Of a DNA stretch of 64,000 bases, positions 15,917 to 47,396 are shown in pieces. Below the pieces are notes generated by a model. The model did no database searches. It worked only from the letters and a program-made list of their open reading frames with translations, and was not told the DNA's origin. The stretch is from Candidatus Azambacteria bacterium (GTDB lineage Bacteria > Patescibacteriota > Minisyncoccia > GWC2-36-17 > WO2-46-25), in assembly GCA_016234725.1 (NCBI GenBank), contig JACRAK010000019.1:5801-69800 (forward strand). The letters run 5' to 3'. Position 1 is the stretch's first letter, and each line of letters starts with the position of its first letter. Both the position numbers and the translations under genes were made by a program.

Positions 15917-15924
15917 AAAAATAA

Positions 15925-16110
15925 TAAGGAAGATAGGGAAGTTCCCTATGATAATAAGGAAATACCTTTTTTGAATAAGGAATTTCCTTTTTTATTCCCT
16001 ATCATTTCATGTTTTCCCCCTGCGGGGGATCTCCCGAAGAGAGACGGGTTCCATGTTTCATGATTCAAGTTCCATGATTCAGGTTCCCGGTTTTATGTTT
16101 CAGGGTCGTG
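15925..16110. repeat. compound intergenic repeat: aataagga palindrome, 35-nt double-hairpin element (16011-16045), then gttccatg/gtttcatg tandem units
   Basis: The copy of the element inserted in the desulfurase gene (7023-7057) differs by 1 nt. Confidence 0.75.
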
Positions 16111-16257
16111 TTTCCAGTTATCCACAATTGGTGATGTTGCGGTATTCCTGTGGGCACATGATTCCTGTATACTGGTAAGTAATGGCACAAATACTTTGTT
16201 TATTGATACGCTTTTAAGTCGGTTGTTTTAGCTATAGGTTTTGTGCGTTTGGAACGG

Positions 16258-16286
16258 TTGACCTTTATTTGTCTGTACTTTATAAT
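16258..16286 (+). promoter_or_regulatory. sigma70-type promoter (TTGACC, 17-nt spacer, TATAAT)
   Basis: Near-consensus -35 and -10 boxes with a 17-nt spacer, about 570 nt upstream of the 1154-aa surface protein start. Confidence 0.6.
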
Positions 16287-16292
16287 GGGGGA

Positions 16293-16857
16293 AAGTGAAT
16301 AGGGTGGTGCGAAGGCGCCATCCGTTCGTATTGGTTTGATGTCAGCTCTTATGCCGGCATCGCGTGGCGTGTGCCACGCGAGCCATGCTTGCATGAGAGG
16401 TGCCTTCAAATGAGACGATGGAAAAGCGATTGAAAAGGAAGAAACGCAAGATCATTGAAAAGTGAATAGGAAGAAAGGCAGAGTAACTTCCCTTTAAGTT
16501 TGTATATGATCTCGAAGAGAAAAGTCGGGTCGGTGTTATGCATCCTGAGCCTGTCCTGAGTTTATCGAAGGGCATGTCGAAGGGTTGCACAATAGAACTT
16601 GATTCTAATTTAAGATCATTCGGTCACGATGGTTATGGCTTGAACGAGAGCAGTCATTATTAATTTTTAAGTAACATAGGACTTACGCAGTTGGATGCAG
16701 TTCGAGGCGCAAGCGAGAAGCGACTGAGCCATACGCAGTAGTATGGTGATGGAGCTTCAAAGCGAAGCAACGAAGAAATGCACCGACTGCGTAAGTCCTA
16801 TAACAAAGCAGATTTCACTCACCGGAATGGTGGGCGGGTCTGCGTAAGCAAAGCATT
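16293..16857 (+). promoter_or_regulatory. long ORF-free 5' leader with structured elements, including a 15-bp perfect inverted repeat (16677-16691 / 16786-16800)
   Basis: About 565 nt with no credible ORF. taggacttacgcagt ... actgcgtaagtccta encloses about 95 nt. Candidate riboregulator or sRNA. Confidence 0.4.
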
Positions 16858-19800
16858 ATGAGTAATCAGCCTTTAGTAGGCCAGAATGCGAAAAAGAAAT
16901 TATCGCAATTTCTTTCCGCAACGCTTGCCTTCACAACGACTGTTTCATTGTCCGGCTTTGCCCTGATGTTCGCGTTCACCGCGAGCGCACAGGTTGCAAC
17001 GTTGTCAGACGGTGATGTGGTCAAGACCGCGGATAATCCCGATGTATACATCGTGAAGATGCATCCGCATGGTCAGTACGCGGGTTGGAAGCGTCTTATT
17101 CTCAACCCGGAAGTGTTCAATCTTTATGGACACCTCAAGTGGTCAAACATCAAGACGGTAAACCAGGCGACGGTTGATGCGTATCACACGTCTGCATTGG
17201 TACGAGGAGAGAATGATCCTAAGGTATATGTCTTGGCGCCAAACGGCGACGTAGGAACAAAAACCTGGATCACAAACGAAGCAGAGTTCCTCGCGGCAGG
17301 TTATGACTGGAGTCAGATCGCGCAGGTAAACAACAAAGAGCGCGACATGTACACGACTGCTGGTTCACAGCAGCAGGTACCGGCAGCGACAGGAACGGGC
17401 TTGATGGTATCGTTGGCGTCAAACACCGCGGCGGCAGGTTCTATCGTATCTGAGCTTACGGGCTCTGGTACTGGATTGACAGCAGACGGCGCACAGGCAC
17501 AGGTATCAATGCTCACCGCGAATTTCGCTGCGGGTTCAGATGGCGATGTAGCGGTAACGACATTGAAGGTAAAGAGAATGGGCATTTCAGCGGACGCTGA
17601 CATCGCGAATGCGTACTTGTACGATGGCGCGACCCGCGTTGCGGAAATGACCAACATCTCTTCAACCTACATTTCATTCGTGAATGCATCTGGTTTGTTC
17701 ACGGTTTCTCGTGGTACAAGCAAAGCGATCACGGTGAAGATGGATGTGGCAAATGGCACTTCAGCAGGCAAGACAATGGCGTTCGCGATCAACGTGGCAT
17801 CTGATGTTGTGGCTGGCACAGCTACGGTTTCAGGTTCATTCCCGATCGTGGGTAATGGCATGACGACCGCGAATGTTGGCGACCTTGGTAAGATCACGAT
17901 CGCAGACGTTTCGAGCTCAACTACCGTTGATCCGGGTCAGACCGGCTACGAAGTATGGAAGTTCAGCGTTGCGGCAGCGGACCAGAAAGTGAGTGTCTCC
18001 CATATTAAATTGACGAACGTCGGTTCAGTTGCGACAACTGACCTTACGAACATCAAATTGATGGACGGCGCGACACAGCTTGGCGCGACAGCGGCAACCC
18101 TTGCGGTTGACGGCACAGTGACATTCGACCTTTCTTCAAACCCGTTGGTTATCACCGCGGGCCAGACGAAAAACCTGAGCGTGAAAGCAGACATCGTCGG
18201 TGGTACGACTCGCACATTCCGCTTCTCTGTACAGAGATCAGCGGATATCGTAGCGATGGACACCAACTACGGTGTTTACCTTAAGCCAAACCAGACCGAC
18301 TCATTCTTGGTTATCCAACCGGCAGCAGCGACAACGATCAATTCAGGAACATTGACGATTTCAATTGATCCTGCATCGCCGACAGGCAATGTGGCGGCTG
18401 GTTACACCGACCAGGAATTGGCGCGGTTCGCTTTCAAAGCGTCCGGCGAGGCAGTGAAGGTTTCATCCCTCACCGCAACTTCAACCACGACTGGCACAGG
18501 AGGTTTGAACAACGCGAAGTTGTACTTGGATGGTACGCAGGTTGGCGCGACCGCTGACATTGCAACCACTCCGAACACGACATTCACTTTCGGCAATTCA
18601 TTCATCATTCCTGCGGGCGCGACCAAGACCTTGGTCATCAAAGCAGAGGTGAAGACAGCTGCAGGTGTTGCGTACAATGCGGGCGAAACTATTCAGGCGA
18701 AATTGGTTGCGGGTTCATTGAACGCGCAGGGCCAAACCTCAATGACTTCGATCAGTACGTCAGCGGCAAACGGCAACACCTTGACGGTGCAGACCGGCTT
18801 GTTGACGACATCAGCAAACACTGGATTGGCAAATGCAACTACTGCGTTGCCGACTGGTGTTAAGGGCTCAACAAACGTGAAGATTGCATCATTCGTGATC
18901 ACCGCAGGCTCGGGTGAAGGCGCTGATGTAAGCCAGATCGTAGTCAAAAACGGTGCGACAGAAGTGGCGCTTGGCCGCGACTTCCAGAACTTGACATTGA
19001 AGAGCGGTTCAAGCCAGATCGGCACGACCGTTGGTACATTGTCAACAACTGCAGCTAATACCTACACGTTCAATCCGTCTCCTGCGATCAGCATCAACGC
19101 TGGCCAGCAGTACGTAGTTGATGTGTACGCAGATGTGTTAAGCAGCGCGTCAAACGCGTATGCGGTGGGCACCGGTGTTGTGCACACGCCGGTTATTCTT
19201 GACAGCGTGACCGCAACTAGCAAATCAACCAATAGCGACGCAAGCGACGCGACCGACCGGAACGGTCAGAGCGTGTTCATTGCGCTCGCAGGTTCGTTGA
19301 CGGTAGCGGCGGCGTCCGACATGCCGATCGCACAGAACCGCGCAATGGGCCAGACAGGCCAGACCTTGGCAACCTTCAAGTTGACCACAGGCACTCCTGA
19401 AGCGGTGAACATCTCAAGCATCACGGTAACTGACCTGTTGTCGGCGACCGCGACTGCGGCGACCGGTTCGGTAACGAATCTTTCGTTGTGGAATTCTGCA
19501 GGCGTACAGGTTGGCTCAACGGTTGCTTCTATGAGCAGCTCGGCAGTCGGCTTGAACGTGCTCGCGACCTTCAATGGTCTTACGCTGAACGTTGCAAAAG
19601 ATAAGTCAGAAGTGTTGACCTTGAAAGGCGACATGAACACCTATCCGAACGCAGTGTCAGGTAGCGCGCACATGTTCAAAGTGCAGGGCAATGGCGATGT
19701 AACGGCAGTTGGCGCGACGTCAGGCCAGACCATCGCAATGACCGGCGCGGCGATCTCGGGTAATAACCAGAGAGTGTATCGCGCAGAGCTCACCGTCGCA

Positions 19801-20322
19801 AGCGCGATGTCGAACTTCTCGGGTGGTGCAAGCACCGATCAGAACATTGGTAAATACAGATTTACCAACACGTCTCCGGGCAACTACTCCATCACGGTGT
19901 CAGATATTGACCTTGGTTTGAGTACGTCCAAAGCGGCAGCTGCATTTACCGCGACGCGGTATGTCACATTGAAGAGGGATTCGGTAAGTGGCGCGACGGT
20001 TGCAAAGACGCAACTTCGTCCGGGTGTGTTGTACACCGCTTCCGCGCTTCACTTCTCTGACATTACGAGCTGGACAGTGACCGCGGGCAATGTGGGTGAG
20101 CAGATATTCACGCCGTTCACCATTGACGCCTCAAACGGCACCGGTTATGTAGATATTTATGTCTTGGCTGACACGACTGATACAGGCGCGTCAACAATAA
20201 CAATATCTAATAGCCTCGGTTCCGGAAACAATGTTGTCACATGGGGTGATGGCGTATCCGCAAGCACAAGCGTCACATCGGTAGACGGCATGCCGGCCAT
20301 CGGTGCGACGGTTACCTACTAG
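16858..20322 (+). CDS. giant secreted Ser/Thr/Ala/Gly-rich repeat surface protein (putative S-layer or adhesin-like)
   Basis: Signal peptide (…FAFTASA|QVA), no Cys, and repeated beta-rich units of about 100 aa sharing LxDGxTQLGAT…AGQTKxLxVKADI. 1154 aa. Confidence 0.8.
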   Translation: MSNQPLVGQNAKKKLSQFLSATLAFTTTVSLSGFALMFAFTASAQVATLSDGDVVKTADNPDVYIVKMHPHGQYAGWKRLILNPEVFNLYGHLKWSNIKTVNQATVDAYHTSALVRGENDPKVYVLAPNGDVGTKTWITNEAEFLAAGYDWSQIAQVNNKERDMYTTAGSQQQVPAATGTGLMVSLASNTAAAGSIVSELTGSGTGLTADGAQAQVSMLTANFAAGSDGDVAVTTLKVKRMGISADADIANAYLYDGATRVAEMTNISSTYISFVNASGLFTVSRGTSKAITVKMDVANGTSAGKTMAFAINVASDVVAGTATVSGSFPIVGNGMTTANVGDLGKITIADVSSSTTVDPGQTGYEVWKFSVAAADQKVSVSHIKLTNVGSVATTDLTNIKLMDGATQLGATAATLAVDGTVTFDLSSNPLVITAGQTKNLSVKADIVGGTTRTFRFSVQRSADIVAMDTNYGVYLKPNQTDSFLVIQPAAATTINSGTLTISIDPASPTGNVAAGYTDQELARFAFKASGEAVKVSSLTATSTTTGTGGLNNAKLYLDGTQVGATADIATTPNTTFTFGNSFIIPAGATKTLVIKAEVKTAAGVAYNAGETIQAKLVAGSLNAQGQTSMTSISTSAANGNTLTVQTGLLTTSANTGLANATTALPTGVKGSTNVKIASFVITAGSGEGADVSQIVVKNGATEVALGRDFQNLTLKSGSSQIGTTVGTLSTTAANTYTFNPSPAISINAGQQYVVDVYADVLSSASNAYAVGTGVVHTPVILDSVTATSKSTNSDASDATDRNGQSVFIALAGSLTVAAASDMPIAQNRAMGQTGQTLATFKLTTGTPEAVNISSITVTDLLSATATAATGSVTNLSLWNSAGVQVGSTVASMSSSAVGLNVLATFNGLTLNVAKDKSEVLTLKGDMNTYPNAVSGSAHMFKVQGNGDVTAVGATSGQTIAMTGAAISGNNQRVYRAELTVASAMSNFSGGASTDQNIGKYRFTNTSPGNYSITVSDIDLGLSTSKAAAAFTATRYVTLKRDSVSGATVAKTQLRPGVLYTASALHFSDITSWTVTAGNVGEQIFTPFTIDASNGTGYVDIYVLADTTDTGASTITISNSLGSGNNVVTWGDGVSASTSVTSVDGMPAIGATVTY

Positions 20323-20325
20323 TAG

Positions 20326-20856
20326 ATCTCAAAACTCGCATACTGCTTGTGACAGTATGATGAGTTTACCCGCCTAAGTTTCTTTAAAGAAATTTTGGCA
20401 GGGACCGCAAAGAGCCCCGAATTTCGGGGCTCTTTGCATTTCTGCTTTCGCGTTTTTGTTTTCGTTATTACTCAATCTTACGAGGTGCGACCTCGTAAGA
20501 TTGAGAGATACTCAAGCAAACACCTCCCCCATTTCGGGGGAGGTGTTTTGCGTTTGCGGAGGCGTTTTGTTTTACCCGCAATCGCCTTGGCGACGGCGGG
20601 TGTTTAGGGATGTTTTGCGTTTGCAGATGTATTTTGCGTTTTTGTTGTTATGCCAATATTCGATGTCATTCTACTCCGATCGGAGTAGAATGACATGGTG
20701 TGTGGAATTGGCGTTAATAATTCTTATGAGACTAAGTCTCGTAAGAATCAAACATCTCCCCAGAAATAGGGAGATGTTTTGTTTTAGTGGATGTGTTTTG
20801 TGTTTTTGTGATTTTTTATATTCGGTCGTCCGACGACCGAATATTGTTTTACCTCG
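20326..20856 (+). repeat. array of at least 8 different perfect GC-rich hairpins, each followed by a T-rich tract (tgttttgcgttt-like)
   Basis: Hairpins at about 20332-20367, 20408-20436, 20473-20505, 20521-20543, 20664-20699, 20721-20743, 20752-20773 and 20818-20844. Spacing is irregular and the motif gttttg[ct]gttt recurs. Confidence 0.75.
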
Positions 20857-20871
20857 ATACTTTAAGCATTT

Positions 20872-20899
20872 TTGACTTGCGATATGCGCATGGTATAAT
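20872..20899 (+). promoter_or_regulatory. sigma70-type promoter (TTGACT, 16-nt spacer, TATAAT)
   Basis: Lies 7 nt upstream of the ATG at 20907. Confidence 0.55.
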
Positions 20900-20906
20900 T
20901 GCTGGT

Positions 20907-21086
20907 ATGAAAAAGCTCTCACCAAAGAAGAAAAAAATCATATCCCAAAATCAATTTGGCGTTATTTTGGAAGATATCAACGGAAAATTTGATCTGATGA
21001 TAGAAGGACAAAAAGCGTCTGATAAAAAGAATGAAAGTAATTTCAAGGTTGTTTTCAGTATCTTTCCAGATTTGAAGATGAATTGA
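20907..21086 (+). CDS. small Lys-rich protein (MKKLSPKKKK…), N-terminal-module paralog of the 21244 protein
   Basis: 59 aa. Its 5' region (gtatgaaaaagc.ctc.ccaaagaagaaaaaa) is duplicated at 21240. Confidence 0.5.
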   Translation: MKKLSPKKKKIISQNQFGVILEDINGKFDLMIEGQKASDKKNESNFKVVFSIFPDLKMN

Positions 21087-21214
21087 TGTTTATTAAAGCG
21101 GAAATCGCCGATATCAAAAAGACATTGACGCAGAAAGAGGATAAAGACAGGGTCGCTCTTTTGGAAAAGCGCGTAGAAAAATTGGAACGACAGCTTGCGC
21201 AAACGACACGGTAA
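21086..21214 (+). CDS. small coiled-coil peptide (42 aa), C-terminal-module paralog of the 21244 protein
   Basis: TGATG overlap with the previous ORF. Similar to the C-terminal coil of the fused paralog. Confidence 0.35.
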   Translation: MFIKAEIADIKKTLTQKEDKDRVALLEKRVEKLERQLAQTTR

Positions 21215-21243
21215 AATTTGAAAGGAATGATATAATTATTAGT

Positions 21244-21558
21244 ATGAAAAAGCCCTCGCCAAAGAAGAAAAAAGATGTTACCCTCAACGATCTCGCCCTT
21301 ATGATGGGAAGGGGTTTTAACGAAGTCCATGAAAAAATGGACAGGGGATTTGCCGGTGTGGATGTACGATTCGAGCAAGTGGATGTGCGTTTTGAGCAAG
21401 TTGACGAACGACTTGATCATTTGGATCATCAAGTAGCGGGGCTAAAAAAAGATTTTAATGATCTTCAAACTGCTGTTGACGGCTATGCAAAGAAAGCTGA
21501 TACCTATTTTCAGGAAATGGTAATGTTGGCGCATAAGGTCGATAGAATGGAGCGCTGA
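21244..21558 (+). CDS. small Lys-rich plus coiled-coil protein (fused form of the two preceding ORFs)
   Basis: Starts MKKPSPKKKKD and has an internal VDVRFEQ tandem duplication. Extended -10 (TGaTATAAT) at about 21226-21234. Confidence 0.55.
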   Translation: MKKPSPKKKKDVTLNDLALMMGRGFNEVHEKMDRGFAGVDVRFEQVDVRFEQVDERLDHLDHQVAGLKKDFNDLQTAVDGYAKKADTYFQEMVMLAHKVDRMER

Positions 21559-21621
21559 ATTTTACAGCTCGCAGAAAAGATGGGGGTTCAGCTTAAGGCC
21601 TAAGCATTCTCTATTTAACCG

Positions 21622-23907
21622 ATGGTTTTCCGAGAAAGCACTATCGTTTCCATTATAAAAGCCGGCGTATACGCCGCTCTTTTTTTACCGTTTATAGTCG
21701 TTCCGCTGTTTCTTTTTCCCTTTGCCACTTCGCGCGGCTTTTTGTTTCAGATCATCGTTGAGTTCGTTTTTGCGCTCTGGGCGGTGCTTGCGTTGAAAAA
21801 CCCTGTGTATCGCCCCAAAAAGACAGCGCTTTTTCTCGCGCTGTCTTTTTATTTTTTAGCAGTACTGCTTTCTACGATCTTCGGGCTTGACCCGTACCGG
21901 AGCTTTTTTGGCAACTACGAACGCATGTGGGGGTTCTTTTCGCTTGTACATTTCTTTTTGTTTTTTGTGGTGTGCGCGGGAATGTTCAAAACAAAAGAAG
22001 AATGGGCAAGGATCATCAAGATCACGCTTATTGTCGGCGCGCTTTCCGTTGCTTTTGGCATGTTCCAATTCGTCGGTTCGCTTGTGATGAGCGGCAGTGC
22101 GCCGCGCATTATGAGTACCATCGGCAATCCGGCGTTTTTTGCAAGTTATCTTTTCTTTGTATGTTTTTTTGCATTCCTTTTTTATGTGCGCGCCAAACTG
22201 CAGGGAAGTTCGGAATACTCACTTCGTTTTTTGTATAGCGCGCTTTCGCTTGTGGCGGTGTTTGCAATTTTAGCTACCGCAACGCGCGGCGCGGCGGTAG
22301 GGCTTGCGGCGGTATTTTTTGTTGGCGCGGCGTTGCTCGCGGTATTTTCCAAGAAACGCGCGTTGAAGATCGGCGCGATATCGTTTGTTGTTCTTTCGCT
22401 TCTTGGGGTAGTGGTGCTTGTCTCGCAGGGGGCGTTGTTTGAAAAGCCGGAGCGCATCACGCAAGAACAGTTTTATGGTATAGATCATTTCGACGCGCCG
22501 GTCGGGGAAGCGCAGAGCGTGCCGTTCCTTTCGCGTATTGCAAATATCTCGCTTTATGACGTAACGGTGCAAACGCGCCTTATCGCGTGGAAGTCGGCAC
22601 TCGGAGGAATGAAGGAGTCGTCTTTGCTTGGCGTAGGGCCGGAGAATTTTATTCTCGCGTTCAACAAACAGTTTGACCCGGCATTTTATTCCTATGAGCG
22701 TTCAGAAGTATGGTTTGACCGCGCGCATGATATCTATATCGACATGCTCGTAACGCACGGGTGGGTAGGGTTGATTGCGTATCTGGCTCTTTTTGCCGCG
22801 GCATTGTATACGATCATCTCGCTGTATAAAAAAGGTAAGCTCGATGCCTCGCACGCATTCGTATTTGCGCTGTTTTTTGTCGCGTACGCGGCGCAAAACA
22901 TTTTCTTGTTTGATTCGTTCTCGGCGTTTCTGATGTTTATCGTTGCGCTTGCGTATCTCAATAGTTTTTCTCAAGAACAAAATGCACCAGCGCCTCGCGG
23001 GGGATTTGTGAGCGTATCGATGCTTGCCGTGCCGCTCATTGGTGTGCTTTTGGTGAGTTATTTTTTTACTGCACGACCGGCCGCGGAAGCGTATTTTATC
23101 TCAAAGGCAGAAAGCGGAAGATACGATATCCATCAAACGATGGAATATTACCGGCAGGCGACCGCATATCATACATATGGCGACAACGAAGCACACAGTC
23201 GTATGGCGCTTGCGGTGGCAAAGTACATTCAGGGCGTTGAAACAAAAGAATTGCCGTCAGGCGTTGAAGCGTATCTCGATGAAGCGATCGCCGCATTGAA
23301 GCAAAACATCGACCAGACCAATCAATATCTCTTACTCTATCGGCTTCAGCTTTCCGATCTGTATAATTTGAAGCTCTCCCGTACAGGAATGGCGTCGCCC
23401 GAGATAGAAGACATTATTCGCACATCTATCGCGATAAGCCCGGGAAGAATGGAGTTTGAATTCGCGCTTGCGCAAACTGAATTTTTGAAGGGGGATTATC
23501 AGAAATCCATTGATATTCTGCTGGGAGCGTCAGCGAAAAACTCAGACCACCCTATGCCATATTGGAAGATCGCGCAAGCGTATCATTTCATGGGAAGCGA
23601 TGAGAAAGGCATCCCGTATCTTGAAAAGGCGTTATATCTCGGGCAAGGCGTTCGTACTGCGAAAGAGGTGCTGTGGGCGGAGAAGTATTATGTAGAGCAC
23701 GAAGACCTCGTGAAAATCATCTATATTGACCAGCGGATGCTGCAGGCAGGAGTGGATGATGCGGAGGCAATACGCCTTCATATGAACATGGCGGTTGTCT
23801 ACGCAAAGCTTGGCAAGAAAGAAAAAGCCATTGAGCACGCGCAAGCAATCGCGCAGCTCGACCCCTCCCAACGTGAAGCCGTGGATAACTTTATTAAAGA
23901 GTTATAA
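21622..23907 (+). CDS. polytopic membrane protein, O-antigen ligase/Wzy_C-like, with C-terminal TPR domain (paralog 1 of 3)
   Basis: About 12 TM helices followed by about 280 aa of TPR-like helices. Paralogous to the 28719 and 30808 proteins. Confidence 0.7.
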   Translation: MVFRESTIVSIIKAGVYAALFLPFIVVPLFLFPFATSRGFLFQIIVEFVFALWAVLALKNPVYRPKKTALFLALSFYFLAVLLSTIFGLDPYRSFFGNYERMWGFFSLVHFFLFFVVCAGMFKTKEEWARIIKITLIVGALSVAFGMFQFVGSLVMSGSAPRIMSTIGNPAFFASYLFFVCFFAFLFYVRAKLQGSSEYSLRFLYSALSLVAVFAILATATRGAAVGLAAVFFVGAALLAVFSKKRALKIGAISFVVLSLLGVVVLVSQGALFEKPERITQEQFYGIDHFDAPVGEAQSVPFLSRIANISLYDVTVQTRLIAWKSALGGMKESSLLGVGPENFILAFNKQFDPAFYSYERSEVWFDRAHDIYIDMLVTHGWVGLIAYLALFAAALYTIISLYKKGKLDASHAFVFALFFVAYAAQNIFLFDSFSAFLMFIVALAYLNSFSQEQNAPAPRGGFVSVSMLAVPLIGVLLVSYFFTARPAAEAYFISKAESGRYDIHQTMEYYRQATAYHTYGDNEAHSRMALAVAKYIQGVETKELPSGVEAYLDEAIAALKQNIDQTNQYLLLYRLQLSDLYNLKLSRTGMASPEIEDIIRTSIAISPGRMEFEFALAQTEFLKGDYQKSIDILLGASAKNSDHPMPYWKIAQAYHFMGSDEKGIPYLEKALYLGQGVRTAKEVLWAEKYYVEHEDLVKIIYIDQRMLQAGVDDAEAIRLHMNMAVVYAKLGKKEKAIEHAQAIAQLDPSQREAVDNFIKEL

Positions 23908-23948
23908 TACTTTATACTTTTAAACCCTTAAACATTTAAACTTTTCCC

Positions 23949-24419
23949 ATGAGCACTGCAAAATCATTTGAAGATCTGTTTGTGTGGCAAAAATCCCGGG
24001 AACTGGTAAACTGCATTTATTCGTTTACACGGAAACCGCTATTTGCCAATGATCGGGGACTTGCCGATCAGATCACTCGCGCCGCCGCATCGGTTTTATC
24101 CAATATCGCAGAAGGATTTGAGCGGGGAAGCAGGGAGGAGACGGTATATTTTCTGTACATCGCAAAGGCATCGTGCGGCGAAGTACGCGCGCAATTATAC
24201 GTCGCACTCGACCAAAAATACATCACGAAGACAGAGTTCGAAAAAGCTGCTGATCTGTGTCGTTTCACATCGTCGCTTATTTCTAAATTCATCGAAAGTT
24301 TAAAAGTATCACCGCATAAAGGCATAAAGTTCAAAAAGCCGATCGACAAGGAAAGAGAAGAATTTGAAAAGCAACTCCTCAGCTATCTCCCTACCGACCA
24401 CCCACTTCGCAATACGTAA
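23949..24419 (+). CDS. four-helix-bundle protein (TIGR02436 / Avd-like, 23S rRNA intervening-sequence protein family)
   Basis: FEDLFVWQKSRELV…ITRAAASVLSNIAEGFERGS…FLYIAKASCGEVRAQL matches the family consensus. Confidence 0.85.
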   Translation: MSTAKSFEDLFVWQKSRELVNCIYSFTRKPLFANDRGLADQITRAAASVLSNIAEGFERGSREETVYFLYIAKASCGEVRAQLYVALDQKYITKTEFEKAADLCRFTSSLISKFIESLKVSPHKGIKFKKPIDKEREEFEKQLLSYLPTDHPLRNT

Positions 24420-24482
24420 CCACTAATTTTTTAAACCCTTATACTGTTAGACATTTGAACTTTATATCTTTAAACTAAATCT

Positions 24483-24986
24483 ATGGAATCACAAGAGCAA
24501 GCACAACAAAACAAAAAAAGAGTCCCAAAAGCGCTAAAGATCGCGGGGATTGCAATTGGTGCACTTGCCGTTTTTCTAATAACAGCGTTTTACGGCCTTT
24601 CGTGGTATGGAGAGTGGAGCTTGAGGCAAGACGTTGCACGGATCATTGAGCAGCAAAACCGGCCATATCTTGAAGACACCTATGGAGGAAAAACGCCAAA
24701 AGAAACACTTGAGCTTTTCATTGCTGCAGTCGAAAAAGAGGACTTTACTCTCGCAAGCAAATACTTTGTTTTGAGCAAACAAAGAGAATGGGAGAGCGGA
24801 TTGGGAAAGATAAAGGAAAGGAATAATTTGAATTTACTGCTCGAAAAGATGTATAAAATGGAAGACAGGGGATTTTTAGGCCCCGATTCATTTCAAATGG
24901 CGGCAAAAGATGAAAAAGGCGTTTTTATGACTTTCATATCATTTATTAAATATCCATCTGGTATCTGGAAAATTCAAGAACTCTAA
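24483..24986 (+). CDS. hypothetical membrane-anchored protein
   Basis: N-terminal TM followed by a soluble domain. Confidence 0.45.
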   Translation: MESQEQAQQNKKRVPKALKIAGIAIGALAVFLITAFYGLSWYGEWSLRQDVARIIEQQNRPYLEDTYGGKTPKETLELFIAAVEKEDFTLASKYFVLSKQREWESGLGKIKERNNLNLLLEKMYKMEDRGFLGPDSFQMAAKDEKGVFMTFISFIKYPSGIWKIQEL

Positions 24987-24987
24987 A

Positions 24988-27900
24988 ATGACAAAAAAAA
25001 TCTCATTTTTTCTCATAGTTTTTGCATTCATTTCCCTTGTTTTTTTTCAGCAGGGCAGGGGATACGATGACAAAACCACCCACCCAGGTCTTACTGACGA
25101 GATGGTTGATTTTTATAATGCTTCATTTGATGCAAAATTAACCAGCGAAGAAAAAGAGTGGATAGTTCAGGGAGCGATAGATGAAGATATTCCGCCTCGG
25201 TGGATAAACCATTTTTATGATCCAATTTATAACGAAGGATGGAAAGCAGAAAATCTCGGCACCGTACCGCCCTCAACACTTCGCTTTCTTTCCGGCATAT
25301 TTTTTAACATCAATACAGAAATTGTTTCTTCAAAGCAGTGGGTTCATGATGAGGTTTTACAGGCGCGCTATACAAGTTATGGTGGAAATAACACGTGGGA
25401 AAATGCTATTCGCCAATATGCAAACGGCAATAAAAAAGATGCATATTATATTTTAGGTCATGTTTTGCATTTGCTTGAAGACAAGACAGTTCCTGATCAC
25501 ACAAGGAACGATACTCATGCTCATGAAGGATCATTTATTAGTGGCGATGGAGGTAGTCCATATGAAGATTATGGCAGGAATTTTAATCGGCAGAATTTAA
25601 CGACAGCGCAAGAGTTGCGCCAGTTGAATAAACAACCATTTTTTCTACCTTCAATTGATGAATATTTTGATTATCTTGCAAAGTATTCAAACGGCTATTT
25701 TTTTAGCGAACATACAATAAATTTAAAAAAATATACGAATCCTAAAATTATAAAAGAAAGGATCTACAATAATGATCTTTTTTTAGGTTACAGCAAGGAT
25801 AAGGATGGAATAGAATTTCCATTGGTAAAAATAAAAGAAACGTTTGATACAGGAAGTGGGGGCGTATTGCGAGAATATTCTGTAAATGAAAAATATATCT
25901 TAGAGAATTATTTCTCCCGGCTTACTCAAGAGGCGGTTCTATCTGGTGCCGGTGTTATTAAGTTATTTCACGAGGAAGCGGAAAGGGCTAAACAAAACAA
26001 AGCATCTATTTCTCCTGTACCACAAATAAGCTGGTGGCAACAAATGAGATCTCCTTTATATGGTGGCATTGCCTTGTATAATAACGTAAACGAAACAGTG
26101 GTAAGCGCATATAGTTTTGTTACCTCTTTTACCGCTAATACCATCTCTTTTTTTGGTAATTACTCAAATCTATTTGCCGCGCAGCTGAGCGGGTTGATCA
26201 GTACAAACGCACAGCCAGCGCCTGCGCCGGCGGTGGTTGTCGTGCAAGAACCCGCTTTGGTGCCTGTTGAAATCAATGCGGGTTCGCCCATCCCTCCGCA
26301 ATCGATAGATGTCCCCGCAGAGACAGCCGCCGCTCCCACGATAGCTGCTCCGCAAGTAACACCCGCGGCAGAGATGATTACTGTGCCGCCGCCCGCTAAT
26401 GTAGTAGAAATTCCCGCGATAATATCCGAAGCGATCGTAGATGTTCTGCCTTTACCCGCGCCGGTATATCGCGGCAGCGCTTCCGTGACGGGTGTTTCGC
26501 CGGATGCATTGGTGGCACAAAATAATACCCCATTAACCGCAGCAGAGACACAGACAACAAATACAACGACAGCCACAACTTCTACAAATGATACGCTTGC
26601 GACAACGACCGACAGCACTTTTGCAACCACGACCGATGCGACGAAAGGCGATACGGCAACATCAACGGAAGAAGTGATCGTGTCAGCGACACCGACCGAG
26701 CCGGTGATCGCAGAGACACCAGAGGTCATTGATGGGCCGCCGGTCGTCATCAACGAAATTGCCTGGATGGGCACGAAAGCGCAGGCAAATGACGAATGGA
26801 TAGAGCTGTATAACAAAACAAACAGCGACATCGACCTTTCCGGCTGGATGCTTGAAAGCAGGAATCAGCGATTTTCCGTCGCATTGCAGGGCGTGATTCT
26901 TGCGAAGGGATATTTTTTGCTTGAACGTACTGCAAGCACGACGACAGATCAAGCGGAGAACATGACATACTCTTCGCACAAAGGCGTGTTGGTGGACTCC
27001 GGACCGGATGCAAATGTGTATCTCAAAAACGGCACGACAACAGTTGACAATGTTGATTTTAACAACCGTTGGATCGCAGGAGAGAACGGGGTGAAGCGCA
27101 CCATGGAGCGGGTGAGTCCATATGCGACGAGCACGCTCTCATACAATTGGAAAACATATTCCGAAGCGCTTACACCGCCATTTGCAAAAGCCGCAATCGT
27201 AGATGGTATTGCAAACGACATCCTCGGTACGCCGGGCGCGAAAAACAGCGTGACCGGATACTATACGCCAACGGGGGGTGTCACCGAGAATACCGTATGG
27301 CGTAAGGCGTACAGCCCGTATTATGTGCCGGCCTCCACCGCCATTCTGCAAAATGCGACGCTTACGATAGAGCCGGGAACAGTGGTTAAATTTGCTAAAG
27401 GAGGATACTCTTATCCCGGTGGGCTGGAGGTGCATGGTGTTTTAAAGGCGGAGGGCACGCAAGCCGATCAGATCATTTTTACTTCATTTCTGGACGATGC
27501 GGTAGATGGTATCGATTCCAATCAAGATGGAAAATCCACAAGTCCTGCGCCCGCAGATTGGATGCGCATTGATTTTTTCAACACGACGAAGCCATCGGTG
27601 ATCCGTTACGCAAAAATATACTATGGCGGACAGGGGTACACCAATGCTAACGGTTATCCCATGTATTCCGGCGCAGTTAATATTCAAAATGCAAGCCCTG
27701 TTATTTCTGATTCCCTGTTTGACGGCAATAAAGCGATATCTCTCTATGTCAAAGGAGATTCGCATCCGATCATTACAGGAAACACTATTAAAAACACCGT
27801 GACGCCATACGGATACGGCATCCAACTTGCCAATGCCAGCTCCACAGCGGACATTATTGGGAATATTTTTGAGGACAATGGCGTCGGTATCAGCTCTGAA

Positions 27901-28722
27901 TCCGCGACAAGTACGCCGCTTATTGTGAGGGACAATACATTCGCGCGCAATCAGAAAAACGGCGAGTTTAAGGGCGGCACCGACTTCAACCTTGATAACG
28001 CGAATAATCAGGACAGCGAGCGTAAAGGAGGGTTTTATATTCGGCTTGTTGTGAGCGAGGGACAGACAAAAACGCTGAAACAAGATACGATGCCGTATAT
28101 TCTCGAAAGCGGGTTTACCGTAGCGGAAGGAGGCACGCTCACCATTGAGCCGGGCGCGGTCATTAAAAGCAAAAATTTAAACGATTTCGGTTCTTTTGCG
28201 GTGCCGTTTATCATAGAAGGAACGCTGCGCGCACAAGGAACAGCGGCCGCACCGATCGTATTCACCGCATTTGCAGATGATAGCGACGGATATGACAGTG
28301 ATGGTTCGGCAGCCGCCCCCACTCCCGGCGCATGGAAAAACATCCAATTTATCGGCGCAACATCGTCCGATTCTATTTTAGAATATGTGAGTGTTCGTTA
28401 CGGAGGACGCGGTACGAATGTATGTCCCTATGCGTACTTCAGTGGTCCGTGCATGGAATATAAAGGCGCGGTACTTGTGCAGGATGCAAGCCCGACCATT
28501 TCGCACGCGGCATTTAACCGCAATCTCGCGATAGCTATTTTCGTAGAAGGGGATGCGCAACCGATCATCGAATACTCTGATATTCGCGATACACAAGTAG
28601 GAGTGAAAAGTCCGCGGGAAACTATCGGCGGCATCGGTATCAGCATTGGCGCGCAGTCAACGCCGACGCTTACCGATAATACTTTCTCAAACAATCTCGA
28701 GGATGTAATAGATAGGCCATGA
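24988..28722 (+). CDS. giant secreted protein: N-terminal His-rich putative metallohydrolase domain, Pro/Thr-rich linker, lamin-tail domain, right-handed beta-helix repeats
   Basis: Signal peptide; HVLHLLEDKTVPDHT / HAHEG; lamin-tail domain motif VVINEIAWMG…EWIELYN…DLSGW; repeated NxxxxN/GxGI beta-helix rungs. 1244 aa. Confidence 0.8.
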   Translation: MTKKISFFLIVFAFISLVFFQQGRGYDDKTTHPGLTDEMVDFYNASFDAKLTSEEKEWIVQGAIDEDIPPRWINHFYDPIYNEGWKAENLGTVPPSTLRFLSGIFFNINTEIVSSKQWVHDEVLQARYTSYGGNNTWENAIRQYANGNKKDAYYILGHVLHLLEDKTVPDHTRNDTHAHEGSFISGDGGSPYEDYGRNFNRQNLTTAQELRQLNKQPFFLPSIDEYFDYLAKYSNGYFFSEHTINLKKYTNPKIIKERIYNNDLFLGYSKDKDGIEFPLVKIKETFDTGSGGVLREYSVNEKYILENYFSRLTQEAVLSGAGVIKLFHEEAERAKQNKASISPVPQISWWQQMRSPLYGGIALYNNVNETVVSAYSFVTSFTANTISFFGNYSNLFAAQLSGLISTNAQPAPAPAVVVVQEPALVPVEINAGSPIPPQSIDVPAETAAAPTIAAPQVTPAAEMITVPPPANVVEIPAIISEAIVDVLPLPAPVYRGSASVTGVSPDALVAQNNTPLTAAETQTTNTTTATTSTNDTLATTTDSTFATTTDATKGDTATSTEEVIVSATPTEPVIAETPEVIDGPPVVINEIAWMGTKAQANDEWIELYNKTNSDIDLSGWMLESRNQRFSVALQGVILAKGYFLLERTASTTTDQAENMTYSSHKGVLVDSGPDANVYLKNGTTTVDNVDFNNRWIAGENGVKRTMERVSPYATSTLSYNWKTYSEALTPPFAKAAIVDGIANDILGTPGAKNSVTGYYTPTGGVTENTVWRKAYSPYYVPASTAILQNATLTIEPGTVVKFAKGGYSYPGGLEVHGVLKAEGTQADQIIFTSFLDDAVDGIDSNQDGKSTSPAPADWMRIDFFNTTKPSVIRYAKIYYGGQGYTNANGYPMYSGAVNIQNASPVISDSLFDGNKAISLYVKGDSHPIITGNTIKNTVTPYGYGIQLANASSTADIIGNIFEDNGVGISSESATSTPLIVRDNTFARNQKNGEFKGGTDFNLDNANNQDSERKGGFYIRLVVSEGQTKTLKQDTMPYILESGFTVAEGGTLTIEPGAVIKSKNLNDFGSFAVPFIIEGTLRAQGTAAAPIVFTAFADDSDGYDSDGSAAAPTPGAWKNIQFIGATSSDSILEYVSVRYGGRGTNVCPYAYFSGPCMEYKGAVLVQDASPTISHAAFNRNLAIAIFVEGDAQPIIEYSDIRDTQVGVKSPRETIGGIGISIGAQSTPTLTDNTFSNNLEDVIDRP

Positions 28723-30806
28723 GCGACAATATTCTTGTAAACATCATCAAGTGGCTCACGGGCGCGGCATTGTGCGTGCCGCTTGTGTTTTCGGTGTATT
28801 TTTACCCGTCACACATTGCGCCCCAGACATTTCTTTTTCGTCTGATCGTGGAGGCGATGCTGTTTGCGTATCTTGTATTGGTGTTGCGAAACAGCGCGTA
28901 TGCGCCAAAGTTTTCCCCGATGCTGTGGGCAGTTGCTGTATTTATCGGGGCGCAGGCGCTTGCGGGCGCGTTCGGGGTTGACCCAATACAGAGTTTTTTT
29001 TCCGATTTTGAGCGGCATTGGGGATTTGTAACCATTATCCATTTTTTCGCATTTTTTGTGATCGTGAGCGCGGTGGTGCGCGAGGAGCGCTCGTGGCGCT
29101 GGCTCCTTGCGGTGTCGGTAGGAGCAAGTTTTCTTTCTGCAGGATATGGTGTGTACCAATTCTTCTTTGAAGATATCGGGCGCATCTATAGCACCATCGG
29201 TAATGCCGGATTTTTTGCGACGTATCTGTTACTCAATGCGGCACTTGCGCTATGGCTTGCGCTCGGCGCGTTTTTTGCGCGTCCGTGGCGGTTTGCGTTC
29301 GGAGGCATTGCCCTTGTGAATGCAGTGGTCGCCATGCTCACCAGCACGCGTGCGGCGATGCTTGCGCTTGCGGCGGGAATATTCGTGATAGGGTGCGGAT
29401 ATATTTTTTGGTACGAGTATAAGACAAAGCGGTTGAAGATGGTCCTTGCGACGCTTCTTGTTGTTTTTGTGCTGGTGGGAGGTGCGGTGCTTGCGCTTGC
29501 GCATACCGGCTTTGGTGCAAAAATAGGGATCAGCCGGCTTGCTATTTTTTCGCTTTCCGACGTTACGACGCGCACGCGCCTTTTTGCGTGGCAGGCGGGG
29601 TGGAAAGGATTTTTGGATGCGCCGCTTCTTGGCGCGGGCCCTGAAAATTTCAAAGTCGTGTTCAACAAATATTTTGACTCCGGGTTTTACGCGTATGAAA
29701 TAGGAGAGACCGAGTTTGACCGCGCGCATAACATATTCATCGAACAGCTCTCTACGGGCGGCGCTATCGGCTTTATCGCGTATGGTACTCTGTTTGCGGT
29801 GTTTTTGTATCTTGTATGGAGCGGACAGCGCACGGGTGCATTGAGCGCGCACGCTTCAATTATCCTTGCCGCGTTTGCGGTGGCGTATGGCGTGCAAGGG
29901 TTTTTCAACATGGACACATTCACATCCTTTTTGCCGCTCTTTTTGGTGTTTGGATATGTCGCGGCACGCACCACGCATACGAGCGAAGAACATCCTCATG
30001 TGCCAAATGCCGCGCAAGGATCGCTCACATTTTCTTTTGCGGCGGTTGCGCTTATAGTATTTTTTGCGCTTGCGTATGTGGGGTGGGCGGTGAATATACA
30101 TCCTGCCCGAGCCGATCGCGCGCTTTCCGATGCGGACGATCTGCGCCAGCGCATAGGGGAGATGGATCAAAGCGATGTGCTTGGTGCGGCAACGGCAGCA
30201 TACCGGCGCGCACTTGACCTTTCTACGTACGGAAAAGGAACGGTTCAAAAATCGCTTGCCGCATACGCGCTCGGTTTCTATCAAACATTCGGGAGGCGAT
30301 CACCGCAAGCATTCAGCGACGAATTTCTTCCATTTTCCATGCGTGAGCTTGAAATATATATCCAACAGCATCCTCGTGATTATCTCGCGCATAGCACACT
30401 CGGGAAACTGTATAATGTTCAACTCCTGCTTACTGCAAAAAAAGATGAGCAGATCGAACGCATGCTCGCGCAGGCACAGACGCTTGCGCCGGAACGGCTT
30501 GAGATGCCGTTGGTGTTCGCACAGCGCGCGTTGATCGAGGGCGATTACAATGCCGCGGCCGCGCACGCAGACGAAGGGATAGCAAAAAGCAAAAAATTTC
30601 TCGATTTTTATCGTGTCGCGTTTATCGCGTATAGCTTACAAGGAAATGAAGACAAGGCGTTTCGCGCGCTCGATGAGGGCGTACACAATGGACTTTCTCT
30701 GGTAAGCGAGAAAGAAATGGGGTGGCTTGCACAGCAATACGAGCGGCGCGGCATGGAGGAGGAAGCAGAAAAGTGGTATGCGCGCGCGGCAGAGGTGGCT
30801 CAATGA
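28719..30806 (+). CDS. Wzy_C-like polytopic membrane protein with C-terminal TPR domain (paralog 2)
   Basis: ATGA start/stop overlap with the upstream giant gene. Same architecture as the 21622 protein. Confidence 0.75.
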   Translation: MSDNILVNIIKWLTGAALCVPLVFSVYFYPSHIAPQTFLFRLIVEAMLFAYLVLVLRNSAYAPKFSPMLWAVAVFIGAQALAGAFGVDPIQSFFSDFERHWGFVTIIHFFAFFVIVSAVVREERSWRWLLAVSVGASFLSAGYGVYQFFFEDIGRIYSTIGNAGFFATYLLLNAALALWLALGAFFARPWRFAFGGIALVNAVVAMLTSTRAAMLALAAGIFVIGCGYIFWYEYKTKRLKMVLATLLVVFVLVGGAVLALAHTGFGAKIGISRLAIFSLSDVTTRTRLFAWQAGWKGFLDAPLLGAGPENFKVVFNKYFDSGFYAYEIGETEFDRAHNIFIEQLSTGGAIGFIAYGTLFAVFLYLVWSGQRTGALSAHASIILAAFAVAYGVQGFFNMDTFTSFLPLFLVFGYVAARTTHTSEEHPHVPNAAQGSLTFSFAAVALIVFFALAYVGWAVNIHPARADRALSDADDLRQRIGEMDQSDVLGAATAAYRRALDLSTYGKGTVQKSLAAYALGFYQTFGRRSPQAFSDEFLPFSMRELEIYIQQHPRDYLAHSTLGKLYNVQLLLTAKKDEQIERMLAQAQTLAPERLEMPLVFAQRALIEGDYNAAAAHADEGIAKSKKFLDFYRVAFIAYSLQGNEDKAFRALDEGVHNGLSLVSEKEMGWLAQQYERRGMEEEAEKWYARAAEVAQ

Positions 30807-30807
30807 T

Positions 30808-32958: not shown

Positions 32959-32972
32959 TACACAGAAGTGCG

Positions 32973-34178
32973 TTGTACCCTGAACGCAAGAAGGTGTATA
33001 ATAGAAGGGAAATGCCATTTCAACCGGTACAATCAGATCCTGAGTACCATAGTTTTCAAAGGCGGCAATCTTTTCTGTGGGTTGCGCTGTTGGGCGTTGT
33101 TTTGCTTATCGGCGGCGTAGTGTTCTTGATCGCGTATCAGCTCATGCGCGGCGGAGGGGGAAACGGCGGCGCGCCGTCTGCGGTGGTGATGCCTGCGGTG
33201 AATGCGGTGGCATCGATCATACGCGGAGAAGCTGTTTCACAGGGCGATTATTTCCTGATGAGTGAAGTATCCTCGACCGATAAGCGCCTGAGAATTTTCA
33301 AAGTGTATTATGCGCCATTTTCAAAAGAAGAGATCTTTGCGATCCCGTGGCGCGATGGCGCGGCAGCTCCCGTGGTCGCGGAGTACGGCGAAAATCTTGC
33401 GGTATTCCTTGATTCCGGGCGGAGCATAGTGATCACGCGGGAAGGGAAAACGGTGTCGCTTTCCAATTCTTTTTTTGTGCCGGAAGATCCTCACTTCACT
33501 ATTTCTCCCGATGGGAAGAAAATGGTGTATTTCAAGCAATTCTCTTCGCTCGGTACGAAAAGCCTCACGATCCGTGATCTTGAAAAGAACGAAGATGTGT
33601 TCGGTTGGCCGATAAACTCTCCCGCTTCCGAGACGTGCGATTTTAGCGGATGGTCGGCAGATGGAGGAAAAGCGTATTGCACGAGCGTAAAAAACGGCAG
33701 GGTGATGGTGAAAGCGGTTGATGTGCGGCGATATTCATATGCCGTTGCCGCATCATTTTCCGGCGTGCGGGATGCGCAATTCTATCCCGCGCATGCGCTT
33801 GTTGTCGCGGCAGACAAACAAAGCATATTCACGTTCGATATCACCACAAAAGAAAAAAAGGATGTCCTTGCGCTTGCGGGCGAAGCAGTGGAAAGCGTTT
33901 TTCTTGCGCCCGACAGATCAAAGATAGTGTTTACCGCGGGCGGTGCCGTGCATGCGGTGGGGCTTGATGGCAGTGGTAAAAAGGAGATCGATCATGCAAC
34001 CCGCATACTTTCATTATTGCCTGACGGCGCTCGCGCGCTGGTAGAGGTGTCTGAAGACGGAGGAGCGCATTATGCCATCATCGGTATAGACGAAGAGAGC
34101 CATGCGGAGTTGGGCGGCATTACCAAGGATATCGTGCATGCCCAGTTCATCGGCTGGTTCTCAGGAGGCGTGAAGTAG
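32973..34178 (+). CDS. hypothetical membrane-anchored beta-propeller-like protein
   Basis: TM helix near the N-terminus and a repetitive beta-rich C-terminal region. Start uncertain; the alternative is MPFQ at 33012. Confidence 0.5.
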   Translation: MYPERKKVYNRREMPFQPVQSDPEYHSFQRRQSFLWVALLGVVLLIGGVVFLIAYQLMRGGGGNGGAPSAVVMPAVNAVASIIRGEAVSQGDYFLMSEVSSTDKRLRIFKVYYAPFSKEEIFAIPWRDGAAAPVVAEYGENLAVFLDSGRSIVITREGKTVSLSNSFFVPEDPHFTISPDGKKMVYFKQFSSLGTKSLTIRDLEKNEDVFGWPINSPASETCDFSGWSADGGKAYCTSVKNGRVMVKAVDVRRYSYAVAASFSGVRDAQFYPAHALVVAADKQSIFTFDITTKEKKDVLALAGEAVESVFLAPDRSKIVFTAGGAVHAVGLDGSGKKEIDHATRILSLLPDGARALVEVSEDGGAHYAIIGIDEESHAELGGITKDIVHAQFIGWFSGGVK

Positions 34179-37682: not shown

Positions 37683-37757
37683 TCCGCGGTGGCGCAGTGG
37701 TAGCGCAGGCGACTGTTAATCGCTTGGTCGTAGGTTCGAATCCTACCCGCGGAGCCA
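37683..37757 (+). tRNA. tRNA-Asn (anticodon GTT)
   Basis: Acceptor stem tccgcgg/ccgcgga, D-arm gcgcagtggtagcgc, anticodon loop cuGUUaa, T-arm gtaggttcgaatcctac, 3' CCA encoded. Confidence 0.85.
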
Positions 37758-37765
37758 GATAGGAC

Positions 37766-37795
37766 AAAAACACCCATATGGGTGTTTTTCGTTTT
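37766..37795 (+). terminator. intrinsic terminator (aaaaacaccca-tat-gggtgttttt)
   Basis: Perfect hairpin plus U-tract right after the tRNA. Confidence 0.7.
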
Positions 37796-47360: not shown

Positions 47361-47396
47361 AAAAACCACCGTGTCAGACGCGGTGGTTTTGTTTTT
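47361..47396 (+). terminator. intrinsic terminator (aaaaaccaccgtgtcagacgcggtggttttgttttt)
   Basis: Hairpin plus U-tract after cspA. Confidence 0.7.

Follow-up and report, generated by a model that had tools for sequence, protein, structure and literature searches.

A hairpin-packed spacer behind a surface-protein gene of a Candidatus Azambacteria bacterium: a probable reiteration of an ordinary terminator-to-promoter region

Hairpins between the surface-protein gene and the next promoter

The 64,000-nt stretch of contig JACRAK010000019.1 analysed here (the window) comes from the chromosome of a bacterium of the candidate phyla radiation (CPR), a Candidatus Azambacteria bacterium; NCBI lists an identical Wzy protein under that name. 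It hosts the housekeeping genes UvrA, XseA, ClpB, DnaG and RpoD. Almost every gene lies on the + strand, and GC skew is positive throughout the window. A non-coding spacer of 584 nt (20323–20906) separates the stop codon of a surface-protein gene from an ATG at 20907, and is packed with hairpins (Table 1). This array is probably an ordinary terminator-to-promoter spacer that was reiterated and patched, with a few orphan palindromes in addition, at a recombination-prone spot. The evidence does not support a new class of array; ordinary parts have accumulated here in an unusual way.

About ten hairpins lie in the spacer, six of them perfect (H1, H2, H3, H5, H7 and H8, with stems of 11–17 bp) and four imperfect (H0a, H0b, H4 and H6). 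The minimum free energy of the folded + strand was −261.7 kcal/mol versus −154.7 ± 5.3 kcal/mol for shuffles (z = −20.2), and the minus strand also folds strongly (z = −17.6). Perfect hairpins of at least 9 bp number 27 in the whole window versus 1–3 in shuffled sequence; six of the 27 fall within 440 nt of the spacer, whereas the other hairpin-bearing gene ends carry one each. The hairpin density in the spacer is well past chance expectation.

A preliminary description of this region had reported at least eight distinct perfect hairpins, every one unique and followed by a T-rich tract, with about eight copies of the motif gttttg[ct]gttt, in a region with no credible open reading frame (ORF). 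The last point was borne out, and because the homologous spacer in relatives is merely 117–226 nt long, no conserved gene is concealed here. The dense packing and the stem lengths also stood, with the perfect hairpins reduced to six. On the other hand, a T-rich tract was found directly 3′ only of H1, H3, H4, H7 and H8, and not of H0a, H0b, H2, H5 or H6. Exact GTTTTGYGTTT occurs three times, and once more with one mismatch; a count of about eight needs degenerate copies. Nor is every hairpin unique, as H3 and H7, and likewise H2 and H6, are diverged duplicates.

The terminator pattern was matched by H1, H3, H7 and H8, with stems of −15 to −26 kcal/mol and 4–6 T in the following 10 nt, but not by H2, H5 and H6, which have 2–3 T and no T run. 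A single terminator-like perfect palindrome is present at each of seven other gene ends of the window, such as GGGTGTTTTT-CGTTTTCT at 37766 and GGTGGTTTT-GTTTTTCT at 47362. Most of these lie between an A-tract and a T-tract, and in several the T-tail is interrupted; their T-rich tails read, for example, TTTTTCGTTTT or TTTTGTTTTT. Because other gene ends carry such palindromes, the hairpin-plus-T-tail units of the spacer represent the standard terminator of this genome. The possibility raised earlier, that the units are single terminators typical of gene ends in this genome, was confirmed as to their type, though here they are stacked rather than single. What is unusual in the spacer is how many terminators it has, not their type.

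The preliminary description had also seen variable palindromes joined by conserved linkers. That unit dissolves on alignment, as the repeated ‘linker’ GGAKGTGTTTTGYGTTT is the 3′ arm of one terminator type (type I, below) together with its own U-tract, copied in tandem in 19-nt steps. The linker copies run into the T-rich sequence that precedes the next −35 box. Four modules can be recognized in the spacer, and each closes with a −35-like box, TTGTTT, TTGTTG, TTGTGA and lastly TTGACT. A −10 box lies only behind the final TTGACT; the three earlier boxes are without one, and a promoter scan found one promoter-grade match in the spacer. This promoter is 91% identical to that of a related locus (L020), and the ATG at 20907 would imply a leaderless transcript.

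Table 1. Features assigned to the spacer and its immediate flanks, in window coordinates.
Feature	Position	Strand	Basis or remark
Secreted-protein gene, 1154 aa	16858–20322	+	ORF, N-terminal signal peptide; 3′ end adjoins array
H0a, stem-loop in the 3′ untranslated region (UTR), invariant loop G-CUUGUGA-C	20332–20367	+	conserved in relatives, covariation
H0b, imperfect CCCGCC/GGCAGGG hairpin, AT-rich palindrome nested in loop	20369–20403	+	start of type II terminator module
H1, predicted type II intrinsic terminator, perfect 15-bp stem, −26 kcal/mol, tail ATTTCTGCTTT	20407–20437	+	
Module 1 tail, T-rich, closing with decayed −35-like TTGTTT and TTATTACTCAAT	20438–20470	+	
H2, orphan perfect palindrome, 16-bp arms, loop GCG, without T-tail	20471–20505	not assigned	
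Linker AGATACTCAAGC and H3, predicted ancestral type I intrinsic terminator, 13-bp stem, −24.6 kcal/mol, tail TTTTGCGTTT	20506–20548 (H3 hairpin proper 20518–20548)	+	
Two tandem 19-nt copies of GGAGGYGTTTTG(CG)TTT, the H3 3′ arm with U-tract	20539–20576	+	direct-repeat family D1
H4, imperfect GC-rich hairpin, old backbone element	20574–20601	+	imperfect hairpin at same position of L009
Module 2 tail, two further tandem 19-nt T-rich copies, then decayed −35 TTGTTG (20642–20647)	20602–20662	+	repeat family D2
H5, orphan 34-nt perfect palindrome, 17 bp, no loop, without T-tail	20663–20696	not assigned	
H6, near-perfect palindrome, diverged H2 copy	20720–20748	+	lone non-Watson-Crick pair is a + strand G-U
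H7, diverged duplicate of type I terminator, 11-bp stem (20750–20779), tail TTTTGTTTT	20750–20811	+	terminator-family alignment
H7, downstream part: two tandem 19-nt T-rich copies, then decayed −35 TTGTGA (20806–20811)		+	
H8, orphan perfect palindrome, 13-bp arms, then TGTTTTACC; terminator-like	20818–20844	+	
Promoter TTGACT (20872–20877), 16 nt, TG-n-TATAAT (20894–20899)	20845–20906	+	scan 11/12, extended −10
Decayed small coiled-coil gene 1	20907–21214	+	tblastn
Decayed small coiled-coil gene 2	21244–21558, homology on to 21612	+	tblastn

The same spacer in related genomes

Syntenic loci were recovered as 6 genome loci, 12 metagenome loci and 7 contigs of close relatives, the relatives being metagenome-assembled genomes labelled Azambacteria, Saccharibacteria or Patescibacteria. 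A metagenome scan with the surface-protein C-terminus as a single query was empty; its alignment-based repeat succeeded. In more than 20 relatives the gene order is the surface protein, 0–2 small coiled-coil genes and a Wzy/TPR O-antigen ligase. Most of them have only a short spacer, in which H0a and a single intrinsic terminator are followed by a T-rich tail and by the promoter ahead (single terminators in L004, L005, L009, L011, L012, L020, L022 and L025–L027).

In the closest clade (L009, L022 and L025–L027; Wzy 78–84% identical), the spacer is 117–198 nt long and runs from the stop codon through H0a, AGATACTCAAGC, the terminator AAACACCTCCCC...GGGGAGGTGTTT and TGCGTTTGAGGATGTT...GTGTTTTTGACTTGC, which includes the −35 box, to TATAAT and the ATG. 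Distant relatives (L012, L006, L011 and L014–L019) follow the same plan with another terminator, CAAAGAG(AG)CCCC...GGGGCTCTTTG, often with a CCCGC...GCGGG hairpin ahead of it. Such a hairpin occupies the H0b position in L012, L006 and L017, and the L017 copy also has a nested palindrome. The two terminator types, type II (H0b with H1) and type I (H3), are alternatives in the relatives; they coexist in the window.

Most of the spacer could be matched piece by piece to these simpler ones. H0b and H1 (20369–20437) match the L012 module, H1 being homologous to the sole terminator of L012 and identical in 30 of 31 nt to a hairpin within an insert of L024. The following 20438–20470 aligns with the terminator-to-promoter stretch of L005 (z = 8.0) and L006 (z = 4.3). 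Over 49 nt, 20502–20550 is 96% identical to L009 (z = 29), and the single terminator of L004, L005, L009, L020 and L022–L027 is orthologous to H3, with compensatory changes. The linker-type copy at H3 is one in relatives versus two in tandem in the window. Then 20551–20662, comprising H4 and tails, corresponds to the remaining L009 spacer with two internal 19-nt duplications, and the tail of module 2 can be aligned to GTTTGAGGATGT..GTGTTTTTGACTTGC in L009 and L026, whose working −35 box is TTGACT. H7 aligns as a type I terminator in which a C-G pair has been replaced by U-A, a compensatory change, and together with its tail resembles the L005 terminator and tail (z = 5.2). The H0a stem of the window resembles that of L012 and not those of L004 or L009, which adds to the patchwork picture.

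Reiteration is also seen in the relatives. After its terminator, the L006 spacer has a 9-nt unit repeated as (GGTGTTTTT)x4, a style of duplication like that of the window. L023 contains three copies of TGTTTTTGACTTGCA at a spacing of 56–62 nt, and both L023 and L024 repeat a promoter-flank module of 56–64 nt. Compared with L025, L024 has a 92-nt insert that contains the H1 hairpin, and the 3′ arm of H0a stands on either side of this insert as a 9-nt direct repeat, ACAGCGTGA. An insert so flanked is the expected leftover of unequal or direct-repeat recombination between spacer variants, and L024 is an intermediate. The ACAGCGTGA repeats could equally bound a deletion in other genomes.

Comparing the same intergenic region among relatives, as the preliminary description had proposed, thus revealed reiterated modules that the relatives have once, and no conserved gene.

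The closest relative switches along the locus. The body of the surface protein is 75–92% identical to the closest clade and 68% to L004, and Wzy is 79–83% identical to the closest clade and 55% to L004. For the last 140 residues of the surface protein (window 19900–20322), on the other hand, identity is 58–70% to the closest clade and 84–91% to L004. The switch indicates that the 3′ end of the surface gene was exchanged between lineages, with a recombination junction at or near the spacer.

Origin of the array and alternative explanations

From the relatives, we propose that in the ancestral order the stop codon was followed by H0a and by one terminator whose U-tract is interrupted (UUUUGCGUUU), and then by T-rich sequence, the −35 and −10 boxes and the next gene, and that the window genome would have come to hold four such terminator-to-promoter modules in tandem. 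Module 1 would be H0b with H1, the terminator type that stands alone in other lineages; module 2, H3 with H4, which is orthologous to the terminator that the closest relatives carry; module 3, H7 as a diverged H3 duplicate; and module 4, H8 with the sole intact promoter. Duplication of the terminator 3′ arm and U-tract in 19-nt steps within the modules would have given rise to the apparent conserved linker, and the orphans H2, H5, H6 and H8 would sit at module junctions. Three processes may have contributed: slipping and unequal recombination of T-rich tracts, gains and losses of sequence via short direct repeats, and swapping of the surface-gene 3′ end between lineages, each swap carrying its own 3′ flank. 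H1 and H3 would stop transcription of the surface gene, later hairpins would serve at most as back-up terminators or insulators before the next promoter, and the remainder of the array would be evolutionary debris.

The homology of the pieces, the module structure, the L024 intermediate and the changing closest relative along the locus are demonstrated. From these we infer slippage, unequal recombination and allele exchange as the origin of the pile-up.

Tandem intrinsic terminators follow strongly expressed genes, for example rrnB T1-T2 of Escherichia coli, and stacked intrinsic terminators are the closest functional analogue of the array. Both have GC-rich perfect stems with U-rich tails in series at a gene end, before the next promoter. 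The window differs in having up to ten hairpins, four or five of them terminator-like, and in that its stack, built by module reiteration, is missing in close relatives and has no conserved design. A literature search on tandem terminators found nothing specific. Among the three options offered at the outset (a terminator stack, small structured RNAs or mobile palindromes), a stack of intrinsic terminators comes closest, in that H1, H3, H7 and H8 fit it; the region as a whole is a mosaic of reiterated spacer modules.

Several points weigh against this explanation. The module model does not account for H2, H5, H6 and H8, which are without homologues and of which H2, H5 and H6 also lack a U-tract. 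Near-perfect pairing kept in H2 and H6 after divergence at several positions points to selection on the hairpin or to an arm-matching mechanism. Termination at H1 and H3 is predicted from sequence alone. The search for palindrome copies extended over 64 kb of source-genome sequence and some 200 kb from relatives, and the change could equally be insertion in the window or deletion in the relatives.

The orphans were followed further. None of the four had a homologue in the window or any fetched relative locus, and H8 is missing at the aligned position of L020 and L005. The pattern GTCATYC...GRATGAC, which might define a wider H5 family, matched only H5 itself. Against viral contigs, H5 and H8 gave no matches, and the H2/H6 core gave seven stretches (three distinct) in unrelated contexts, about as many as expected by chance from a rough estimate. 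The half-sites TCTTAYGAG and CTCGTAAGA, separated by 7 nt, are common to H2 and H6, whose remaining arms differ yet pair. The final 4 nt of H2 (TGAG) belong to the ancestral backbone, a weak hint that H2 perhaps formed in place by inverted duplication, for which the chance expectation is about 1 in 256.

Palindromes were also observed at other places of the related loci. A 44-nt loopless perfect palindrome, TACCAAGGCCAAGCCTATGTAATTACATAGGCTTGGCCTTGGTA, H5-like in form, lies in the spacer of L014 (~3001–3044) and L018 (~4914–4957). In the L006 spacer, a hicB-hicA-like toxin-antitoxin pair lies between inverted copies of the palindrome AATGTTTAGAGGTTSAACCTCTAAACATT (~586–664 and 1284–1322), which also occurs in frame within the Wzy ORF of L005 (~3671–3705). 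Palindromic repeats of the GTCATCCTGAGCGAAGCGAAGGATC / CATTCCCGCGAAAGCGGGAATC type are present in the spacers of L014, L016 and L018, and as in-frame insertions in Wzy loops of L016–L018 they encode the peptides HPERSEGS, SFPRKRESS and HSRESGNP. The spacers of L016, L017 and L019 carry other hairpins, each unique.

Perfect palindromes may be actively made or inserted at particular intergenic hotspots and even in gene loops in this CPR lineage, an idea that we regard as unlikely; the routes could be in-situ inverted duplication, hairpin-templated repair or hairpin-dependent cassette insertion without a recognisable recombinase. The array of the window would then be the record of repeated events of this sort, and the orphans H2, H5, H6 and H8, the L006 hicAB cassette and the loop-nested palindromes would all be products of one undescribed process.

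The best surviving alternative, still unlikely, is that the orphans, or it may be the pile-up in its entirety, mark a hotspot at which small cassettes enter and exit via hairpin-forming sites, or are small mobile palindromic elements; the array would be the sites remaining after cassette loss. The hicAB pair of L006 lies in this very spacer between inverted palindrome copies, with a related palindrome in the L005 Wzy ORF, and the loopless palindrome of L014 and L018, the unique hairpins of L016, L017 and L019 and the palindrome-derived insertions in Wzy loops of L016–L018 are all in keeping with such traffic. So are the 9-nt direct repeat around the L024 insert and the position of the related palindromes H2 and H6, each of which precedes a type I terminator copy. 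However, the window spacer holds no cassette gene, and no hairpin of the window was found again in the window or the fetched loci L001–L020. Neither an integrase nor a Y1/HUH transposase was detected among about 45 proteins scanned, the lone transposase being of the rve type and 36 kb away. The L024 repeat, being the H0a 3′ arm, fits unequal recombination rather than a target-site duplication. The mobile-palindrome idea is a possibility for the four orphans only.

Known palindromic and repeat systems were compared as well. Repetitive extragenic palindromic (REP) units belong to one or few sequence families with hundreds of copies per genome. Like the REP units and bacterial interspersed mosaic elements of enterobacteria, the array is an intergenic palindrome mosaic with short semi-conserved motifs after a gene end. 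Its palindromes, however, are single-copy in the window and L001–L020, and a RAYT transposase was not seen; membership was rejected for want of a repeated palindrome family in these sequences (64 kb of the source genome and L001–L020). Integron attC sites are 57–141 nt long with RYYYAAC...GTTRRRY ends, conserved in structure and variable in sequence. They resemble the present case as variable imperfect palindromes that mark cassette boundaries, as does the L006 toxin-antitoxin cassette between palindrome copies, but the window hairpins are 27–35 nt long, are flanked 3′ by GTTTTGC and not GTTRRRY, and bound no cassettes. No IntI or other tyrosine recombinase was found in the window, and an integron array was ruled out by missing IntI, missing core sites and hairpin size. 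Clustered regularly interspaced short palindromic repeats (CRISPR) consist of identical direct repeats of 23–50 nt that alternate with unique spacers about as long, and cas genes usually accompany them; the direct repeats of the window are only paired T-rich copies of 10–19 nt, and no cas genes were found in the window, so that CRISPR was rejected. As for miniature inverted-repeat transposable elements, the L024 insert has its 9-nt flanking repeat (the H0a 3′ arm), and no terminal inverted repeats or further copies were seen.

Slightly less probable than the cassette hotspot is a functional structured RNA, either a long 3′ UTR rich in hairpins that shields the surface-protein mRNA against 3′ exonucleases or binds a protein through the repeated GGA/U-rich motifs, or a set of self-terminated small RNAs. 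Consistent with such a function are the extreme predicted stability (z = −20), the conserved RNA hairpin H0a that opens the region with + strand G-U pairs, the + strand G-U pair of H6, pairing preserved after duplication in H2/H6 and H3/H7, and GGAKG with U-rich motifs occurring about eight times. However, the parts beyond H0a and one terminator are absent from most relatives, the closest included, and are therefore dispensable. There is no internal promoter, the three earlier −35-like boxes being without −10, and H1 and H3 should halt most transcription before the remaining region. The perfect palindromes fold alike on both strands, and the minus strand also reaches z = −17.6. No Rfam family matched: scanned at gathering score, the window as a whole had tRNA-Asn at 37683 as its sole match, and the region 20250–21000, scanned with E up to 10, gave only sub-threshold, hairpin-driven noise.

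An artefactual origin of the palindromes, as fold-back chimeras of assembly or amplification, is very improbable. Perfect palindromes with short loops or none are typical of such chimeras, and in an independent assembly, the Logan assembly of run SRR12113407, contigs break precisely within H2 and H5. However, a de Bruijn assembler is expected to break at real palindromes that exceed the k-mer length. The Logan contigs reproduce 16010–20502 and 20667–33907, matching both flanks, H0a to H2 and part of H5 through H8 without mismatch, and H1 and H3 have orthologues in other assemblies.

Least probable of all, and hardly credible, is an array of stem-loop tandem interspaced guide RNAs (TIGR) serving a Tas protein with a Nop domain. 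Stem-loop TIGR arrays are described as variable, consistently palindromic, little conserved and common in CPR bacteria, with stems that enclose two 8–12-nt spacers with box C/D motifs and with an adjoining Nop-domain Tas gene (PMC12045711; bioRxiv 10.64898/2026.09.09.750476). The array shares the CPR host and the variable palindromic stems of low sequence conservation, and its 19-nt step of T-rich repeats is about half of a 36-nt tigRNA. But its stems contain no spacers or box C/D, the loops are 0–8 nt long without UG...CCA motifs, there is no regular period, and its pieces have their homologues among the terminators and promoter flanks of relatives. A Nop-domain match was not detected by Pfam among about 45 window proteins, nine small ones of which had no Pfam match at all, although a divergent Tas might escape Pfam. 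TIGR-Tas was rejected on anatomy and for the missing Nop-domain protein. A replication origin or iterons were ruled out by the uniformly positive GC skew and by nearly all genes lying on one strand.

Candidate RNA elements, flanking genes and implications

H0a lies just behind the surface-gene stop codon in 20 fetched related loci (among them L004, L006, L009–L014, L016–L020, L022 and L024–L027), with 14 distinct sequences including that of the window. Compensatory changes affect nine of its 11 pairs, 80.5% of cells are paired versus at most 50% in slid controls, and + strand G-U pairs are many. Its position is always directly after the surface-gene stop, three other 9-mer matches elsewhere being due to chance, and no Rfam family matched it. 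H0a is thus a candidate new 3′-UTR RNA motif, with covariation in its favour.

Another hairpin, terminator-like and conserved, was noticed within the Wzy ORF (21622–23907). It lies at 21817–21850, 195 nt into the ORF, has a 13-bp perfect stem followed by ATTTTTTAG and encodes KKTALFLALSFYF. It is kept in 12 of the 16 relatives with a locatable site, with compensatory changes in some, such as L006 (GACAAT/ATTGTC) and L014 (GACACTGC/GCGGTGTC), and may be an intragenic attenuator. H0a and the Wzy-ORF hairpin are better candidates for functional RNA than the array itself.

Of the two small genes downstream of the spacer, that at 20907–21214, compared with its 149-aa counterpart in L009 and L022, lacks about 40 codons and contains a frameshift, and that at 21244–21558 has TGA in place of a TGG of L006. 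Their decay points to relaxed selection or ongoing change. They gave only weak coiled-coil matches in Pfam, and searches of PDB and Pfam with the neighbour proteins that are of unknown nature returned coiled-coil noise only. The two genes are paralogous, with a Lys-rich N-terminus and a leaderless promoter in common, and are present in 0–2 copies across relatives.

Upstream of the surface gene lies a 940-nt non-coding stretch (15917–16857) with a strong promoter, TTGACC-17-TATAAT (16258–16286). The predicted leader of about 570 nt has a long-range 17-bp stem (~16675–16692 with 16785–16802) and no Rfam match. A 156-aa PF05635 protein is encoded at 23949–24419; this family, that of the 23S rRNA intervening sequence, includes Avd of diversity-generating retroelements, and the gene varies in presence among relatives. 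No reverse transcriptase that would link it to such a retroelement turned up among the window proteins scanned. The sole mobile-element gene detected encodes the rve-type (DDE) transposase mentioned above, with a helix-turn-helix domain, at 57130–58044 on the − strand, where few genes lie.

Where terminators are long perfect palindromes, duplicated terminator-promoter spacers can mimic a structured ‘array’, which calls for caution in scans of CPR metagenomes that seek RNA-guided or cassette systems. For the surface gene itself, exchange of its 3′ end between lineages would leave stacked 3′ flanks behind.

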